In this document: piece after piece, positions 6,018 through 12,581 of the stretch
How the letters are laid out: the number at the start of each line of letters is the position of its first letter
How positions within the stretch are numbered: position 1 is the first letter of the stretch
Origin: Escherichia coli
GTDB taxonomy: Bacteria > Pseudomonadota > Gammaproteobacteria > Enterobacterales > Enterobacteriaceae
Strand: one strand, 5' to 3'
DNA: 64,000 bases
NCBI RefSeq assembly: GCF_046105845.1
Contig: NZ_CP151004.1
Translations under genes and position numbers: made by a program
Notes under the pieces: generated by a model
The model's input: the letters and a program-made list of their open reading frames with translations, nothing else
The model's database searches: none
What the model was told of the DNA's origin: nothing

Positions 6018-7595
6018 ATGACGGAAAACATTCATAAGCATCGCATCCTCATTCTGGACTTCGGTTCTCAGTACACTCAACTGGTTGCGCGCCGCGTGCG
6101 TGAACTGGGTGTTTACTGCGAACTGTGGGCGTGGGATGTGACAGAAGCACAAATTCGTGACTTCAACCCAAGCGGCATTATTCTTTCCGGCGGCCCGGAA
6201 AGCACCACCGAAGAAAACAGCCCGCGTGCGCCGCAGTATGTTTTTGAAGCAGGCGTACCGGTATTCGGCGTTTGCTATGGCATGCAGACCATGGCAATGC
6301 AGTTGGGCGGTCACGTTGAAGCCTCTAACGAACGTGAATTTGGCTACGCGCAGGTTGAAGTCGTAAACGACAGCGCACTGGTTCGCGGTATTGAAGATGC
6401 TCTGACCGCAGACGGTAAACCTCTGCTCGATGTCTGGATGAGCCACGGCGATAAAGTTACCGCTATCCCGTCCGACTTCGTCACCGTAGCCAGCACCGAA
6501 AGCTGCCCGTTTGCCATTATGGCTAACGAAGAAAAACGCTTCTATGGCGTACAGTTCCACCCGGAAGTGACTCACACCCGTCAGGGTATGCGCATGCTGG
6601 AGCGTTTTGTGCGTGATATCTGCCAGTGTGAAGCCCTGTGGACGCCAGCGAAAATTATCGACGATGCTGTAGCTCGCATCCGCGAGCAGGTAGGCGACGA
6701 TAAAGTCATCCTCGGCCTCTCTGGTGGTGTGGATTCCTCCGTAACCGCAATGCTGCTGCACCGCGCTATCGGTAAAAACCTGACTTGCGTATTCGTCGAC
6801 AACGGCCTGCTGCGTCTCAACGAAGCAGAGCAGGTTCTGGATATGTTTGGCGATCACTTTGGTCTGAACATTGTTCACGTTCCGGCAGAAGATCGCTTCC
6901 TGTCAGCGTTGGCCGGCGAAAACGATCCGGAAGCAAAACGTAAAATCATCGGGCGCGTTTTCGTTGAAGTATTCGATGAAGAAGCACTGAAACTGGAAGA
7001 CGTGAAGTGGCTGGCGCAGGGCACTATCTACCCTGACGTTATTGAATCTGCCGCATCTGCAACCGGTAAAGCACACGTCATCAAATCTCACCACAACGTG
7101 GGCGGCCTGCCGAAAGAGATGAAGATGGGCCTGGTTGAACCGCTGAAAGAGCTGTTCAAAGACGAAGTGCGTAAGATTGGTCTGGAGCTGGGCCTGCCGT
7201 ACGACATGCTGTACCGTCACCCGTTCCCGGGACCAGGCCTCGGCGTTCGTGTACTGGGCGAAGTGAAGAAAGAGTACTGCGACCTGCTGCGCCGTGCTGA
7301 CGCCATCTTCATTGAAGAACTGCGTAAAGCGGACCTGTACGACAAAGTCAGCCAGGCGTTCACCGTCTTCCTGCCGGTACGTTCCGTTGGTGTAATGGGC
7401 GATGGTCGTAAGTATGACTGGGTTGTTTCTCTGCGTGCTGTCGAAACCATCGACTTTATGACCGCACACTGGGCGCATCTGCCGTACGATTTCCTCGGTC
7501 GCGTTTCCAACCGCATTATCAATGAAGTGAACGGTATTTCCCGCGTGGTGTATGACATCAGCGGCAAGCCGCCAGCTACCATTGAGTGGGAGTGA
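6018..7595 (+). CDS. guaA: GMP synthase (glutamine-hydrolysing) GuaA
   Basis: 525 aa; GATase domain then SGGVDSS PP-loop ATPase motif. Confidence 0.97.
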
Positions 7596-7634
7596 GGCTA
7601 TTATTTAAACTATTGTTTTATTTGATTTAGTGAG

Positions 7635-7675
7635 TGCCATTGATGATATTGACTGCATTATCAATGGCATTTTTC
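7635..7675 (+). terminator. Rho-independent terminator of guaA
   Basis: tgccattgat N15 atcaatggca 10-bp stem followed by ttttt. Confidence 0.7.
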
Positions 7676-7928
7676 ATGGTATAAGGCCGACGCTGAATCG
7701 AAGATATAGCAAATACCATGTGACCCTATCAGCAAATGCCATGGTATCGACAACCGGGGGCATTGCAGCGCTGTGCTGATGCCATCGATGCCCGCTTTTG
7801 GTCAGAACCGCTCTCTCGACCCAAGCCTCCAGATCGTTAAATATGCGCCAGAGGAGCACCTCGTGATCGAAATTGTGAACAAGACAGCCGCCGCTCGGAA
7901 TCGAAGTATCCATATGGGTGAATAAAGT

Positions 7929-7957
7929 TTGCGGAAAACACGCTGAGAAAATAGAAA
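7929..7957 (+). promoter_or_regulatory. Weak candidate sigma-70 promoter for the DUF262 gene pair (TTGCGG N17 TAGAAA)
   Basis: Hexamers with 17-bp spacer about 25 bp upstream of ATG 7981; RBS aaggga at 7968-7973. Confidence 0.25.
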
Positions 7958-7980
7958 AGCGTCAATGAAGGGACATAGCA

Positions 7981-9261
7981 ATGGCGATTAACGGAGAGGA
8001 CGGTGTTAGTGCAGTCACCGTGGATGAACTACTCAAGCAAGGCCTTCGGATACCGAACTATCAACGCCCATACAGTTGGGAAGTATCGACCGCTCTACAA
8101 CTGGTGGATGATCTTAGCGAAGCTCTTCGAGATACCGAAAGAAAAGATATTCCCTATGTTTTGGGTGCAATCATTCTTCACGATGATGGTGAGTATCTCA
8201 ATGTAGTCGACGGACAGCAACGTCTGCTGACTTTGCGAATGATTCTTGCGGCCTTAGATCCGATAAATCATCAGATTTCGGTGTCTGGTAACAGCGAAAC
8301 TCCTGTCTCCCTGGTTTGGATAGAGCTTCAAAGGCGCCTGTCGCAGTTGGAAGATAAAAAAGAATTTTTGGATTTTATCTGTCACAAATGTCAGTTGGTG
8401 CGTATTGTGACGGACGATATTGATGAGGCATTTCGTGTCTTTGATTCCCAGAACTATCGCGGCAAACCGCTTGCCCCTCATGACTTGCTCAAAGCACACC
8501 ACCTCCGCGAAATGCACGATGAGTCCGCTGCTATGAAAGTGGCTGTCGTTGAGGCTTGGGAAGCCGTAAATGATGAGGATCTGGACAGGCTTTTTTCTAC
8601 TTTTTTATACCGGATATCCAAGTGGTCACGAGGCGAAAGCTCGCTCGAATTTGCTATTCGGGACATCGGGATGTTTAAGGGAATTTCATCACGATCCCAC
8701 AGATCATTTTCGCCAAATCTGCGATATCACCTTGCAGCACAAGCCGCTATGCCACTTCTAAGTGCATGGGCGGTGTCCTCTACACATGATGCACGAAATG
8801 CCGGGCGCAGCCGCTTTCAGCTTGATGCCCCGATAATCGCTGGGCGCTCATTTTTCGAGATGGTGACATTCATGCTTGACGAATTGAAGATACTGGAAAA
8901 AGAGGTTATCGACAGAGGTTTCAAAAACTTTGGCCCATCTCAAAGTCGCTACCGCTACGTGTACGAATTGTTCATTGCCGCGCTGCTTTGCTATACAAAC
9001 AAGTTTGGCGATGAAGATGTGGATGAAGTGCGAAATAGATTATTCGCATGGGCATATGCCTTGCGGGTCGAGTTACTTCGTGTGCAATTTGTATCTGCTG
9101 ACAACCGAGCTCGAGGTAAAAACGATGCAAATAAATCGCCTTTTGTTTTGCTACGCAACGCGATGACTGGAAGTGTTGTCCGCAAACTTCCAATAGCAAG
9201 TCAGCCATACAACGATAACCACGAAAAGGAACTCGTTGCTTTTATCAAGGGGCTGCAATGA
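7981..9261 (+). CDS. DUF262 (ParB/Srx-like, DGQQR motif) protein, 426 aa, no recognisable nuclease domain
   Basis: Motifs IPNYQRPYSW, VDGQQRLLTL (8209-8223), FRVFDSQNYRGKPLAPHDLLK; stop overlaps next start (ATGA). Confidence 0.88.
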   Translation: MAINGEDGVSAVTVDELLKQGLRIPNYQRPYSWEVSTALQLVDDLSEALRDTERKDIPYVLGAIILHDDGEYLNVVDGQQRLLTLRMILAALDPINHQISVSGNSETPVSLVWIELQRRLSQLEDKKEFLDFICHKCQLVRIVTDDIDEAFRVFDSQNYRGKPLAPHDLLKAHHLREMHDESAAMKVAVVEAWEAVNDEDLDRLFSTFLYRISKWSRGESSLEFAIRDIGMFKGISSRSHRSFSPNLRYHLAAQAAMPLLSAWAVSSTHDARNAGRSRFQLDAPIIAGRSFFEMVTFMLDELKILEKEVIDRGFKNFGPSQSRYRYVYELFIAALLCYTNKFGDEDVDEVRNRLFAWAYALRVELLRVQFVSADNRARGKNDANKSPFVLLRNAMTGSVVRKLPIASQPYNDNHEKELVAFIKGLQ

Positions 9262-11210
9262 GCAAGAAGGAGTTGAGACCCGAACTGATAACAGTAGGCA
9301 AGCTATTCACGGGCTATTATCTGATTCCTATTTATCAACGGAACTATGCTTGGCGGGCCGAACAGATTGAGCAACTTATCAGCGATATTCAAGGCTCGGT
9401 GGTTGGGGGCCAGGACGACTATTTTCTTGGGAACCTTGTTGTAATCAAGCGGGGTAGAGAGGACGAGTTCGAGGTCATAGATGGACAACAACGACTTACA
9501 ACCCTCTATCTGCTTCTGACCTTCCTGGAGCAAGACGGTGAGGGTGGGAAGCTGTCGATTGGCCATGCAGGCCACTTGCAATATGAGTCGCGCGCACGGG
9601 CAACGGAAGCCCTGCGGCGAGTAGCACAGGAGGCGGCTAAGGGGCACGTCCGACCGCAGGGCTCCACGAGTAATGCAGATGCTGGCATCCATGAAGGCTA
9701 CAGCATCATCAATCAGTTCTTCAAACAAAATGAAACCCTTAATCGCTCACGCGAAAAATTCTCCGATTTCTTGCTAAAGAAGGTTACTGTCGTCCGTGCC
9801 TCGCTGCCACCCAATACCGACCTCAATCGCTACTTCGAGATCATGAACACTCGTGGGCAGCAACTCAAGCAGGTTGATATTGTTAAGGCTCGCCTGATGA
9901 GCAAGCTGCCCAATCAATATGAACGCGAATGCTTCGCGTGGGTTTGGGATGCCTGTGCTGACATGGATTCTTATGTCCAGATGTCTCTGACCCGTGGTGA
10001 CACCAGTTTACGAAACAAAGTATTTGGCGATGAATGGTCCTGGCTGGAGGTGACCAGCTTCGCGTCGCTAATGGAAAGTCGTCCGCAATCCGACATCAGT
10101 TCATTAAGGCAATCCTCCGAAGGGGTATCGTTGTCCTTGGATGAGGCGTTGTCAAAATACGCTAAAGAGATCGAGTCAAATTCCACTGAAGACGAGGGCA
10201 ACGAGCGGTTTCGTTCGACTATTGAGTTTCCGGCCTTTCTGCTACACGTTCTAAGAATTATGAAAGGCGATGAGGTCGAAGACGAAGGCCAGCTTGACGA
10301 CAAGCGCCTCATCAAGTCATTTGACGACGCCGTAAATAATGTACCCGATGCTAAAGCCGATTGGGTGCGTAGCTTTGCATTTATGCTTCTTAAGTGCCGT
10401 AACCTCTTCGATGGCTTCATCTTGAAGCGTCAATTCACGGCGAACATCGGTGACGATGGCGATTGGTCTCTCCAGCGATTGAAGAAAGGCGGTGCGGACA
10501 AGAAGCCAGCCCCGACGTACATCCATGTTTTCTCGGCCAGCAATGGAAACTTGGAGGAGGACAGCGGTGCTGACCCACATACCCGAGATGTATTGTTGCT
10601 TCAGTCCATGCTTCGGATTACCTACACTTCTCCGCGAACGATGCACTGGATTACCAAAGTTCTTCGCTGGCTATCCGTTAAAGCCCCTCAAGACGCGAAA
10701 CATGCGGATCTTGCCGATTTGTTGAAGGGGTATGCCCGCAGCAAGGTTAAAGAGACATTCCCCTTTGAGGAAGATCAGCAACCACAAGGGTTTGGTATCA
10801 GCCGTATCGTCTTTTCATACCTCGACTATCTTCTGTTGAGTGATTCCTCAAAACGAGATTTCAAATTTCAGTTCAGAACTTCCATTGAGCACTTTTATCC
10901 ACAGCATCCGGACAAAGAACAGTCGGGCGCGGCTGTTTCAGGTTCTAGCCTTAACCTGCTTGGCAACCTCGCGCTCGTAAGCGTCAGCGCGAACTCAAAA
11001 TTCAGCAATAGCCTTCCCAGAGCGAAGGCCGAAAACTTCAAGGATACGATTGAACTTCAAAGTCCCAAGCTCAAGAGAATGGCGGAAATCGCTCGAAATA
11101 CAAGCTGGGACGATCAGCAGATAACAGCACATCATGAAGAGATGGTGACATTGCTTCGTGATGATGTAAGTCTGGTGGAGGCAAGCGGAAGATCCTACCC
11201 GGGGCGTTGA
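9258..11210 (+). CDS. GmrSD-like protein: N-terminal DUF262 plus C-terminal DUF1524 His-Me-finger nuclease motif, 650 aa
   Basis: IPIYQRNYAW, IDGQQRLTTL (9480-9494), YFEIMNTRGQQLKQVD; C-terminal SIEHFYPQHP (10887-10904) and GNLALVSVSANSKFSN. Confidence 0.88.
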   Translation: MSKKELRPELITVGKLFTGYYLIPIYQRNYAWRAEQIEQLISDIQGSVVGGQDDYFLGNLVVIKRGREDEFEVIDGQQRLTTLYLLLTFLEQDGEGGKLSIGHAGHLQYESRARATEALRRVAQEAAKGHVRPQGSTSNADAGIHEGYSIINQFFKQNETLNRSREKFSDFLLKKVTVVRASLPPNTDLNRYFEIMNTRGQQLKQVDIVKARLMSKLPNQYERECFAWVWDACADMDSYVQMSLTRGDTSLRNKVFGDEWSWLEVTSFASLMESRPQSDISSLRQSSEGVSLSLDEALSKYAKEIESNSTEDEGNERFRSTIEFPAFLLHVLRIMKGDEVEDEGQLDDKRLIKSFDDAVNNVPDAKADWVRSFAFMLLKCRNLFDGFILKRQFTANIGDDGDWSLQRLKKGGADKKPAPTYIHVFSASNGNLEEDSGADPHTRDVLLLQSMLRITYTSPRTMHWITKVLRWLSVKAPQDAKHADLADLLKGYARSKVKETFPFEEDQQPQGFGISRIVFSYLDYLLLSDSSKRDFKFQFRTSIEHFYPQHPDKEQSGAAVSGSSLNLLGNLALVSVSANSKFSNSLPRAKAENFKDTIELQSPKLKRMAEIARNTSWDDQQITAHHEEMVTLLRDDVSLVEASGRSYPGR

Positions 11211-11443
11211 CTTCTTTGAATAACCGCTTTTGGACGAAAGTCCCTTGTGGAGTGCAAGTTGTCAGTCTAAAAGCGTTTTGCGTCAGGCGACACGATCAGT
11301 ACAGCTCCCAGGTTTTCTTACCATGGTATTTTGTGTGGTATCGACATGCAAATATAATGCTATTCTATTGATTTTACAGTGTTTTAAGGCGGCATTAATC
11401 ATCGAGTGGGAATGATTTGACCCTGCACTATGAATGAACAAAA

Positions 11444-11469
11444 CCCTCTGTTACTACAGAGGGTTTTTT
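11444..11469 (+). terminator. Rho-independent terminator between the convergent DUF262 operon and yfgI
   Basis: ccctctg ttacta cagaggg followed by tttttt; A-run on the other side makes it partly bidirectional. Confidence 0.65.
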
Positions 11470-11507
11470 ATCTTCAAGAATTATAGGCTTGAAGTTACTT
11501 ACATCGA

Positions 11508-12047
11508 TTAATTAAACCAGCTGTCCGATTTGTTCTCTTCTGCTTTGCCCACGCTTTTCATCAGATCGCGACCGCCTTCAGTCATATTTCTGTTTGCGTC
11601 AGCTTCAGATTGCACCACATCGGTTTGCGCAGCTTTGTGCTTCAGTTCCTGATCGATAAATTCGTTTTCTCGCTTAACGCGGGCTTCTTCTTTCGCCAGC
11701 GCCAGTTTTTGTTTCTGAATCTCTAAGCTGCGTAGCTCATCTTCATAACTTTGATCGCGTTTTTTGTCCGCAGTGGCTTCGGCATCCAGTTTATCCTGAC
11801 GAGCTTTCTTATTTGCCGCTGCCGTTGCCGCTCTTTTGTTAGCGGCGGCCTGGGCGTTTGCGCGACGTTGCTTCTCTTGCTGGATTTCCCTGTTGCGCTC
11901 CGCGACCCATTCGTCATGCTGCCTTTGCTCTTCATTTTTACCTTGCTGTTCCGCTTCTGCGACAGCAGAGAGTTGATCCTGCAATGATGAGGCGATAGCC
12001 GGATAGCTTAAGGAGGCTAAGATGGCGCAAAGAAAAACTTTCTTCAT
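11508..12047 (-). CDS. yfgI: Periplasmic coiled-coil protein YfgI
   Basis: 179 aa, signal peptide MKKVFLCAILASLSYPAIA, charged repeats; K-12 synteny. Confidence 0.88.
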   Translation of the reverse strand: MKKVFLCAILASLSYPAIASSLQDQLSAVAEAEQQGKNEEQRQHDEWVAERNREIQQEKQRRANAQAAANKRAATAAANKKARQDKLDAEATADKKRDQSYEDELRSLEIQKQKLALAKEEARVKRENEFIDQELKHKAAQTDVVQSEADANRNMTEGGRDLMKSVGKAEENKSDSWFN

Positions 12048-12062
12048 GACTCCTCCTGATTA

Positions 12063-12581
12063 TTAGCTCTTTTCAGGACATTTGGTATTTGGCTGAATAC
12101 GCGTTTCGTTATACGTCGTGGTAATAACAACGGCTAAACCTGTCGTAAACTGGCACTCTTTACCCACCTGGGTGGAGGTATACACTTTGGTGCCTTCCTT
12201 ATACGTTAGAGAAACACCTTCTACTAAGGTTTTATCATTCACCATAGAACCCGCTGCCGCGCCAACAGCTCCGCCGCCAACTGCACCTGCAGTCGTTCCG
12301 GAATTGCTGCCAGACCCCACGTTGTGGCCGATTACACCGCCAGCGACTGCACCAATAAGCGCGCCGAAGGCTTGTGCGTTTCGTTTATTTTGGGAGTTGT
12401 CTACGACAACTTTTGCGGGAAGAATGGAAATAATATTAACGGTTTTAGTTTCTTGTTTGGTATTCAGTTGATCGGTTTGATAAACATCGGCGGCATGATC
12501 ATCAGCATTTGACTGGCATCCTGCCAGAGTGAATGACGCTAACATTGCCAAAGGCAGAAGACATTTTTTAAATTTCATCAC
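12063..12581 (-). CDS. yfgH: Outer membrane lipoprotein YfgH (glycine-zipper)
   Basis: 172 aa, lipobox LAGC, Gly-rich GxxxG tract. Confidence 0.88.
   Translation of the reverse strand: MMKFKKCLLPLAMLASFTLAGCQSNADDHAADVYQTDQLNTKQETKTVNIISILPAKVVVDNSQNKRNAQAFGALIGAVAGGVIGHNVGSGSNSGTTAGAVGGGAVGAAAGSMVNDKTLVEGVSLTYKEGTKVYTSTQVGKECQFTTGLAVVITTTYNETRIQPNTKCPEKS

Follow-up and report, generated by a model that had tools for sequence, protein, structure and literature searches.

The interval between positions 7,674 and 7,913 of the window (the whole 64,000-nucleotide stretch of Escherichia coli DNA that was analysed) is best read, with a probability of about 0.8, as non-coding DNA from the inner portion of the left attachment arm in a 3.8-kb element that lacks an integrase, carries a TgvAB-like gene pair and has inserted site-specifically in guaA. 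The 79-aa minus-strand open reading frame (ORF) that fills the interval is a chance reading frame in non-coding DNA and not a gene. The coordinates of the element, of its surroundings and of the features discussed below are collected in Table 1.

Table 1. Features of the guaA-yfgI region of the window. Positions are those of the window; assignments of function to the hairpin, the repeats and the leader are predictions.
Feature	Position	Strand	Remarks
guaB	ends 5949	+	
guaA	6018-7595	+	
Left att core GAGTGGGA (attL)	7584-7591	+	Last guaA codons (..E-W-E); exact 8-mer recurs at the right end
Element-supplied GTGA	7592-7595	+	Finishes the final Glu codon of guaA and provides a new TGA stop
Hairpin and T-run	7632-7676	+	13-16 bp stem, 9-nt loop; hairpin itself 7632-7672
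Putative arm-type sites ATGG(T/C)AT, main cluster (7664-7747)	7664-7670, 7676-7682, 7713-7719, 7741-7747	+, +, -, +	
Putative arm-type sites, further copies	7634-7640, 7736-7742, 7779-7785	-, -, -	
79-aa ORF	7674-7913	-	Chance reading frame
Other small ORFs (examples)	7802-7981, 7773-7925, 7630-7779	-, +, +	
Leader/promoter region of gene A	7748-7980	+	Non-coding, about 230 bp; Shine-Dalgarno-like GAAGGGA at 7967-7973
Gene A	7981-9261	+	GmrSD_N (DUF262) and DUF7834 (Pfam 4e-28 and 7e-55); pN/pS about 0.1-0.2
Gene B	9258-11210	+	GmrSD_N and GmrSD_C (DUF1524) (Pfam 3e-33 and 1e-14)
Right arm	11211-11403	+	Direct pair ATGGTAT (11323-11329) and GTGGTAT (11335-11341), at -81/-69 from the core
Right att core GAGTGGGA (attR)	11404-11411	+	Followed by the original guaA tail ATGA
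Displaced native guaA terminator	11440-11469		3' of the attR core
yfgI	11508-12047	-	

In the empty site of BL21 the spacer between guaA and yfgI measures 92 bp and contains the guaA terminator, while in the window these genes lie 3.9 kb apart. Alignment with that empty site placed the extra DNA, a 3.8-kb element (7584-11411), in the 3' end of guaA, and so bore out the insertion junction adjoining guaA that a first-pass annotation of the sequence had recognised. An 8-bp direct repeat, GAGTGGGA, is present at both ends of the element, and alignments with the BL21 site and with plasmid copies showed that homology switches exactly at this sequence, the empty site reading GAGTGGGAATGA and the occupied one GAGTGGGAGTGA. 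Since the element supplies GTGA after the left core, the guaA product still ends in Glu-Trp-Glu followed by a stop; at locus L013, where the element does not adjoin guaA, the corresponding position reads GTTGG and contains no stop. Only two overlapping genes, and no further long ORF, were found between the two cores. GIsul2 integrates likewise at the 3' end of guaA and uses GAGTGGGA as its att core (PMC9376610); in location and in its core repeated at both ends, the element is thus of the GIsul2/PIME type, and the same position is occupied in four other genera. A transposon producing an 8-bp target duplication was rejected as its origin: insertions that are independent of one another, in different replicons and genera, have this 8-mer on their flanks, it is a known integrase core, and terminal inverted repeats were not found beyond the short arm motif. 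Independent insertions that share the flanking 8-mer and lack terminal inverted repeats argue for site-specific recombination and not for transposition.

The 385 bp that follow the guaA stop were matched in 81 of 5,426 complete E. coli genomes (nearly over the full length in 77) and in 468 plasmid records, of which Klebsiella accounts for 464. At about 96% identity, this stretch recurs in Klebsiella plasmids, in tandem arrays and at guaA of other genera, and it begins each time with the same base behind GAGTGGGA. Since it travels with the element, it is part of the inserted DNA and not debris of a host gene, and the suggestion of the first-pass annotation that it might be a gene remnant left by the insertion event found no support. 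A unit of 3,833 bp with the same ends was found in E. coli EcPF16 and in Klebsiella IncFIB plasmids, these copies being 99.7% identical to each other. Solitary copies at guaA were present in Shewanella indica, Providencia rettgeri and Kluyvera sichuanensis, and in these three species the cargo proteins are 94-98% identical whereas guaA is only 84-94% identical. Among the E. coli chromosomal copies, guaA directly abuts the arm in 52 of about 79, so that about one third sit behind something else.

Tandem arrangements also occur. In MB15 and EcPF16 the order is guaA, island, core, element and core: an island of 15-16 kb separates guaA from the element, with GAGTGGGA at all three junctions. Each island encodes a tyrosine integrase adjoining guaA, followed by AlpA, RepA, TrbJ/TrbL and others; the two integrases are 88% identical, each combines an Arm-DNA-binding domain with a catalytic one, and AlpA is encoded close by. 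Four cores in a row were found on a 17-kb metagenomic contig of another enterobacterium, where they set a 0.68-kb piece, a YecA/SEC-C gene and a window-type element apart from one another; this contig has no integrase gene along its length. The element in the window has no integrase or AlpA gene of its own, both genes between its cores being of the GmrSD type. Using both island integrases as queries, tblastn gave no match in the 64-kb window, and no replication or transfer genes (repA/C, trbJ/K/L, relaxase) were found in 7584-11411. An integrase relic in 7560-8100 was also considered and rejected, the best tblastn match of the MB15 integrase to this region having E = 0.7.

Genes A and B overlap by 4 bp (9258-9261), and DGQQR occurs in the translated products of both. 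From their domains they are predicted to form a TgvAB-like type IV restriction pair. TgvAB, from VPI-2 of Vibrio cholerae, is a type IV restriction system of two genes that acts on T2, T4 and T6 (PMC11014532). It resembles the pair described here in having overlapping genes, the first coding for DUF262 without a nuclease domain and the second for DUF262 and DUF1524, and differs from it in that gene A codes for an additional DUF7834. The likeness to TgvAB (VC1767/VC1766 of V. cholerae) is one of gene and domain architecture.

Turning to the left arm itself, a hairpin with an AT-rich stem starts 37 nt 3' of the guaA stop and is followed by five U. RNA folding of 7596-7690 gave -24.9 kcal/mol (z = -3.2), and none of 200 shuffled sequences was equally stable; in diverged copies, the substitutions within the hairpin fall in the loop or give G-U pairs. 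The arms of the hairpin are also inverted ATGGCAT/TGCCAT motifs. A strict terminator scan did not report this hairpin, likely because that scan allows loops of 3-8 nt and the loop here is longer by one. The integrase-bearing islands have a GC-rich hairpin and a T-run at the equivalent relative place. Since both the element and the islands have such hairpins, each element seems to bring a substitute terminator for guaA, and the hairpin in the window is probably the replacement for the native one, its terminator activity being predicted from the fold and the U-run.

The motif ATGG(T/C)AT is strongly enriched in the same arm: seven matches were counted in its 389 bp against 0.18 expected, a number reached in none of 500 shuffles, and four of the six copies of CATGGTAT in the 64-kb window sit in the two ends of the element. 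The layout of the main cluster (0, +12, +49 and +77, in the orientations +, +, - and +) recurs in the MB15 and EcPF16 islands, in the arm next to int. In these two island arms, six motifs against 0.15 expected and four against 0.17 expected were counted; since the two are homologous to each other, the match in spacing has in practice the weight of a single independent comparison. With the left arm of the element, neither could be aligned by BLAST. At the other end, a direct motif pair at about -80/-68 from the core is shared by the right arms of five elements, namely the window element, the MB15 and EcPF16 islands, the YecA module of locus L013 and the flank of a Klebsiella plasmid copy. An extended repeat, AGCAAAT(A/G)CCATG, is present in two copies. 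Because their order and spacing match those of the island arms, the ATGG(T/C)AT repeats are probably arm-type sites, and because the island integrases contain an arm-binding domain, binding by an integrase of this kind is the simplest reading; some of the repeats may instead be AlpA sites. The first-pass annotation had noticed the junction but had missed this repeat cluster, inside which the interval begins and which belongs to a GIsul2/PIME-type attachment site. In the GIsul2 work the att sites are defined as 19 bp and arm sites are not mentioned (PMC9376610). A 9-bp direct repeat, GAATCGAAG, at 7695 and 7898 was discarded, since by our estimate about 0.3 such pairs would be expected by chance in 400 bp. 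Relative to synonymous sites in the cargo genes, divergence between copies is 0.2-1.0 times as high in the left arm, and in the right arm it ranges from about equal to roughly twofold. This hints at a mild constraint on the left arm at most, in sequences that are too similar for it to be localised.

The remaining part of the arm leads into gene A, and the first-pass annotation had considered the stretch as a possible promoter or leader of the DUF262 operon. For the gene-proximal part this is plausible, an own promoter being needed in the plasmid and tandem contexts. Gene A retains its upstream region in every genomic context examined, so that its promoter should lie within this region, and GAAGGGA is located 7 nt before the gene A start. 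The particular promoter that had been named, TTGCGG-N17-TAGAAA at 7929-7957, fared less well: it is present, but lies outside 7674-7913 and matches the consensus hexamers at three and four of six positions. Compared with TTGACA-N17-TATAAT, in which A2 and T6 of the -10 are invariant, its -10 ends in A and so lacks the final T. It was missed by a consensus scan and was not among the top eight candidates of a weight-matrix scan with matrix values after published compilations. The -10 is invariant in all copies covering it and the -35 reads TTACGG in place of TTGCGG in copy L016, observations that are little informative at an overall identity of about 95%. Neither scan revealed an outstanding promoter candidate; the best sigma-70-like candidates fall in 7622-7685, with a best score of 9.1 compared with a median best score of 7.2 and a 90th percentile of 9.7 in windows of 395 nt. 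A structured RNA or riboswitch-like leader was rejected, since an Rfam scan of 7000-12500 (E <= 1) gave no match and the RNA folds of 7750-7985 on the plus strand (z = +2.5) and on the strand of the ORF (z = +1.5) were both less stable than shuffles. The GC content is 0.56-0.57 in 7720-7900, above that of the AT-rich flanks, and the GC-richer segment of about 150 bp at 7750-7900 could be an old coding relic, although none of the searches supported this.

Much of the earlier description of the ORF itself was confirmed, and its reserve about whether this is a genuine gene proved justified. An ATG-initiated frame of 79 codons is present on the minus strand at exactly 7674-7913, it has no recognisable motif (no Pfam or PADLOC match, a result shared by four other small ORFs), and the 20 nt 5' of its ATG, CGCAAACTTTATTCACCCAT, contain no Shine-Dalgarno-like sequence. 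There is no long plus-strand ORF between the guaA stop (7595) and the gene A start (7981), and the stretch described as about 300 bp long measures about 304 bp from the end of the hairpin and T-run (about 7676) to gene A. The 79-aa ORF is not, as had been stated, the only one, since others of 30-59 aa occur in four other frames. When 7596-7980 was shuffled, the longest ORF reached at least 79 aa in 7.7% of the mononucleotide shuffles and in 16.6% of those preserving neighbours. In the commonest allele, which is that of the 464 Klebsiella plasmid records and of most E. coli copies, the ORF is frameshifted by the loss of one base in the T-run 7796-7799 and of another at 7828; an independent third deletion, at 7808, disrupts it in strain A30 (from Papio; copy L008). 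In copies with an unbroken frame, pN/pS was 0.66-1.41 and substitutions were even over the three codon positions; genes A and B, used as a control on the same sequences, gave about 0.1-0.3.

The first-pass annotation had called for a database search, in which clear homology to a known intact gene would have refuted its reading of the stretch. Protein searches covering 5.8 billion and 1.84 billion proteins returned as homologues only ORF calls from the same locus, both for the 79-aa ORF and for a plus-strand frame of 71 codons, and some of these calls switch frame midway or are chimeric. An open frame of 95 codons, searched against the 1.84 billion representatives, gave such same-locus calls plus one protein, P0028, a surface protein of 2,381 aa with Ig-like repeats (Big_7/beta-helix repeats; E = 6.6e-6). 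This match was dismissed as an artefact: 11 weak hits on a single repeat unit add up to its score, with 12.1 bits for the best domain and a bias correction of 20.6 bits, and it stops exactly at the ends of the ORF with no run-on beyond. PGAP/RefSeq annotates nothing in the spacer in any RefSeq copy examined. In summary, the 79-aa ORF showed no conservation of the frame, no purifying selection, and no homologue from outside the locus or recognised domain.

Several known systems resemble the element as a whole. One of the closest is CR2-sul2. The integrase of GIsul2 has been shown experimentally to move both the whole island and this integrase-less unit between attLR and attR (PMC9376610). The attLR site of GIsul2 contains the same 12-mer (terIS, GGGAGTGAC..) as the occupied site in the window, and the left end of CR2-sul2 reads GAGTGGGAGTGAC, its first 12 bases being those of the window element (PMC9376610). 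Like the latter, CR2-sul2 has no integrase, is bounded by GAGTGGGA cores, has the left end GAGTGGGAGTGA, lies distal to guaA behind an integrase-bearing island and is also found on plasmids. The two differ in their cargo, which is rcr2/sul2 there and a type IV restriction pair here; in that the window element is usually solitary at guaA (the 52 of about 79 E. coli copies and the three further genera); and in the arm repeats, which are not described in the GIsul2 paper (PMC9376610). CIMEs, together with tandem accretion, were defined for the ICESt1 family of Streptococcus thermophilus and are thought to derive from complete elements by decay (PMC5704250). The window element keeps attL and attR, with arm repeats on both sides matching those of integrase-bearing islands, and has no integration or transfer genes. 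In MB15 and EcPF16 it forms a tandem array with an element that encodes an integrase and shares its att specificity, and the incoming element lies there on the side of the target gene, as with CIMEs. Since its att sites are kept, its recombination and transfer genes are absent and it is accreted to complete elements, it conforms to the definition of a CIME (PMC5704250). It differs from those of the ICESt1 family in phylum, integrase family and target gene, and in being a widespread, compact unit of two genes. Finally, PIMEs have been described in a recent preprint as a broad family of guaA islands with defence genes, for which IncP plasmids provide mobilisation (bioRxiv 10.64898/2026.01.12.698999); the relation of GIsul2 to the MB15 and EcPF16 integrases follows a statement in that preprint. 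The window element shares with them the attB at the guaA 3' end and a defence cargo, and EcPF16 carries PIME1EcPF16 according to the same source. PIMEs contain int, alpA, a replication module and transfer genes, whereas the window element contains none of these, and an internal att site separating the GmrSD-type pair from the island is not mentioned in the accessible part of the preprint (bioRxiv 10.64898/2026.01.12.698999).

Read inward from guaA, the left arm would then consist of the core GAGTGGGA, the four bases that restore the stop, and the hairpin and T-run as a substitute for the guaA terminator, the native one having been pushed 3.8 kb downstream by the insertion. Next would come the ATGG(T/C)AT cluster, to be bound by the N-terminal arm-binding domain of a tyrosine integrase of the GIsul2/PIME type, possibly together with AlpA, and the last part would be a leader of about 230 bp in which gene A has its promoter and ribosome-binding site. 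As the element has no integrase, a guaA island that encodes one would have to provide this enzyme in trans. This helper island would land adjoining the element (tandem accretion), and with three att sites then present, recombination between any pair of them would excise both jointly or separately. We infer this mobilisation in trans by analogy, CR2-sul2 of GIsul2 being the precedent. The closest known relatives are thus the CR2-sul2 unit and CIMEs, and the element may be described as an integrase-less, att-flanked "hitcher".

Other explanations of the interval were weighed against this one. It might be a decayed fragment of a gene once carried by an ancestral element, for example of an integrase or of cargo, which now would serve as a spacer only. 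A pN/pS of about 1 and frameshifts would be equally expected of such a relic, and the gene-like GC content (0.56-0.57) of 7720-7900, the proposed origin of CIMEs by decay of complete elements (PMC5704250) and the one weak protein match (P0028, E = 6.6e-6) would agree with it. However, the MB15 integrase gave no tblastn match better than E = 0.7, the two longest frames found only ORF calls of their own locus among 5.8 billion and 1.84 billion proteins, the P0028 score is a summation over repeats whose best domain reaches 12.1 bits, and arm-type repeats occupy 7676-7785; we consider a relic improbable. Alternatively, the interval could serve the restriction operon chiefly as its promoter and as a long 5' leader, perhaps with regulation through the repeats, which would then have no role in recombination. 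The upstream region is indeed kept with gene A in every context, the best sigma-70-like candidates (7622-7685) adjoin the repeats and would give a leader of about 300 nt, and the plus strand is unusually unstructured (z = +2.5). Moreover, defence systems of PIMEs were active when cloned with their native promoters, as stated in the preprint (bioRxiv 10.64898/2026.01.12.698999), and this pair was presumably included among them. Set against this are the lack of any candidate above the background of the window (9.1 against a 90th percentile of 9.7), the same repeats with the same spacing in the arms of islands with unrelated cargo, and the repeats in right arms, which have no gene to regulate. 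As an exclusive explanation this is slightly less probable than a relic; a promoter or leader function and an attachment arm are compatible, and both can hold.

A genuine small protein encoded by the 79-aa ORF is the least probable of these explanations and is largely refuted by the data. The frame is intact in the window and in the copies L007, L013, L016 and L017, and gene callers predict it in metagenomes, but it is broken in the common allele and, independently, in L008. In addition, its pN/pS is 0.66-1.41, it has no Shine-Dalgarno sequence, family match or RefSeq annotation, and an ORF of such length appears in 8-17% of shuffles. The reading as the left attachment arm is therefore preferred, and for annotation purposes this means that no gene should be called for the 79-aa ORF and that an att arm should be entered for the region. 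The ORF is ordinary, and its surroundings are more interesting than the first-pass annotation had supposed.

These surroundings are a compact, predicted anti-phage restriction module that has complete GIsul2/PIME-type att sites and no integrase and that is present at guaA in several genera and in hundreds of Klebsiella plasmid records. The only integrase-less unit experimentally documented to be moved by an integrase of the GIsul2 family, CR2-sul2, carries antibiotic resistance, and the element described here would extend this to a phage-defence cargo. For at least one PIME, that of EcPF16, the accessory region as drawn is a separable element with att sites of its own. The ATGG(T/C)AT repeats, with their fixed spacing on both arms, are concrete candidates for the arm-type sites of the GIsul2/PIME integrase family. 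More tentatively, and as a possibility that we hold to be less likely than not, the 3' end of guaA might be an integron-like docking site, in which integrase-less cassettes with GAGTGGG(A/T/G) cores and arm-type repeats accumulate in tandem. The restriction pair, the YecA/SEC-C gene and the 0.68-kb piece would be such cassettes, and passing GIsul2/PIME integrases would shuffle them, leave them behind or export them to plasmids in trans. If this were true, defence genes would be mobile without a recombinase of their own, and the presence of one 3.8-kb unit in more than 460 Klebsiella plasmid records and in at least five genera would be explained.

Integrase-less modules appear to occur also in series. 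Four consecutive copies of the 8-bp core were located 3' of guaA in a metagenomic contig (Table), separated by a 0.68-kb piece, a YecA/SEC-C gene (778 aa), and the DUF262 pair, and no integrase was found over the whole 17 kb of this contig. The arrangement resembles an array made up of modules that lack an integrase. In the Klebsiella IncFIB plasmids, the DNA flanking the element on its left carries paired ATGGCAT sites at -80/-68 and terminates in GATAATA followed by GAGTGGGA. Because of this motif pair and of this end, the left flank resembles the right arm of a second guaA-type element. This segment is truncated by IS1 on its upstream side, and the right core in these plasmids is GAGTGGGT. 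The plasmids seem to represent the partial capture of a tandem array.

Coordinates of the features considered in this section
Feature	Coordinates	Remarks
GAGTGGG(A/T/G) cores (four, consecutive), 3' of guaA	L013 5609, 6288, 8911, 12729	JGI Ga0209371_1001312; reverse-complement coordinates
Plasmid DNA immediately left of the element	L004 7022-7136; L003 7880-7988	Klebsiella IncFIB plasmids
GAGTGGGA within the 3' end of a conserved PIN-domain gene	L006 40786-40793; L012 28784-28791	both integrase-bearing guaA islands
ISSen4 (IS3 family) copy in the left arm of the element	L005 9240-10600; L006 45392 onward	E. coli MB15; ECN24 likewise
Native guaA terminator hairpin (aaaaccctctgttactacagagggtttttt)	window 11440-11469	intact, 3.8 kb downstream of guaA

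Further sites allowed more than one reading. In both integrase-bearing islands, the GAGTGGGA copy of the PIN-domain gene marks the exact point where the common backbone switches to differing cargo. This copy could represent an internal att site resembling attLR of GIsul2; alternatively, the 8-mer may have arisen by chance. In E. coli F8111-1SC3 (L007 8309-8400), the right core is directly followed by ATAAaccctgtac... instead of by the usual E. coli tail ATGAtttgaccc. The guaA tails in Kluyvera and Shewanella likewise start with ATAAGCC. This copy of the element may have come in with foreign flanking DNA, or else a further remnant may lie 3' of it.

The left arm has been altered in some strains. 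In MB15 and ECN24, ISSen4 was inserted at the site corresponding to ~7838 of the window, splitting gene A apart from the arm repeats. The translation of the 79-aa ORF of this arm (window 7674-7913, minus strand) aligned over its full length, at 20-25% identity, with each of the ~11 Ig-like unit repeats of P0028 (residues 1220-2365), a 2,381-aa surface protein. The alignment scored 35-42 bits summed over repeats and 12 bits for the best single repeat, and shuffled queries reached at most 5.6 bits; at database scale, homology was rejected as a repeat-summation artefact, though the pairwise signal is odd. In P0017, a predicted 113-aa protein of a JGI contig, the N-terminal ~84 residues of gene A are fused to the C-terminal 30 of the 79-aa ORF frame, implying an inversion or rearrangement between arm and gene A, or a mis-assembly, in that sample.

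Beyond the opposite end of the element, the native guaA hairpin is now positioned after the restriction operon, for which it may act as terminator.
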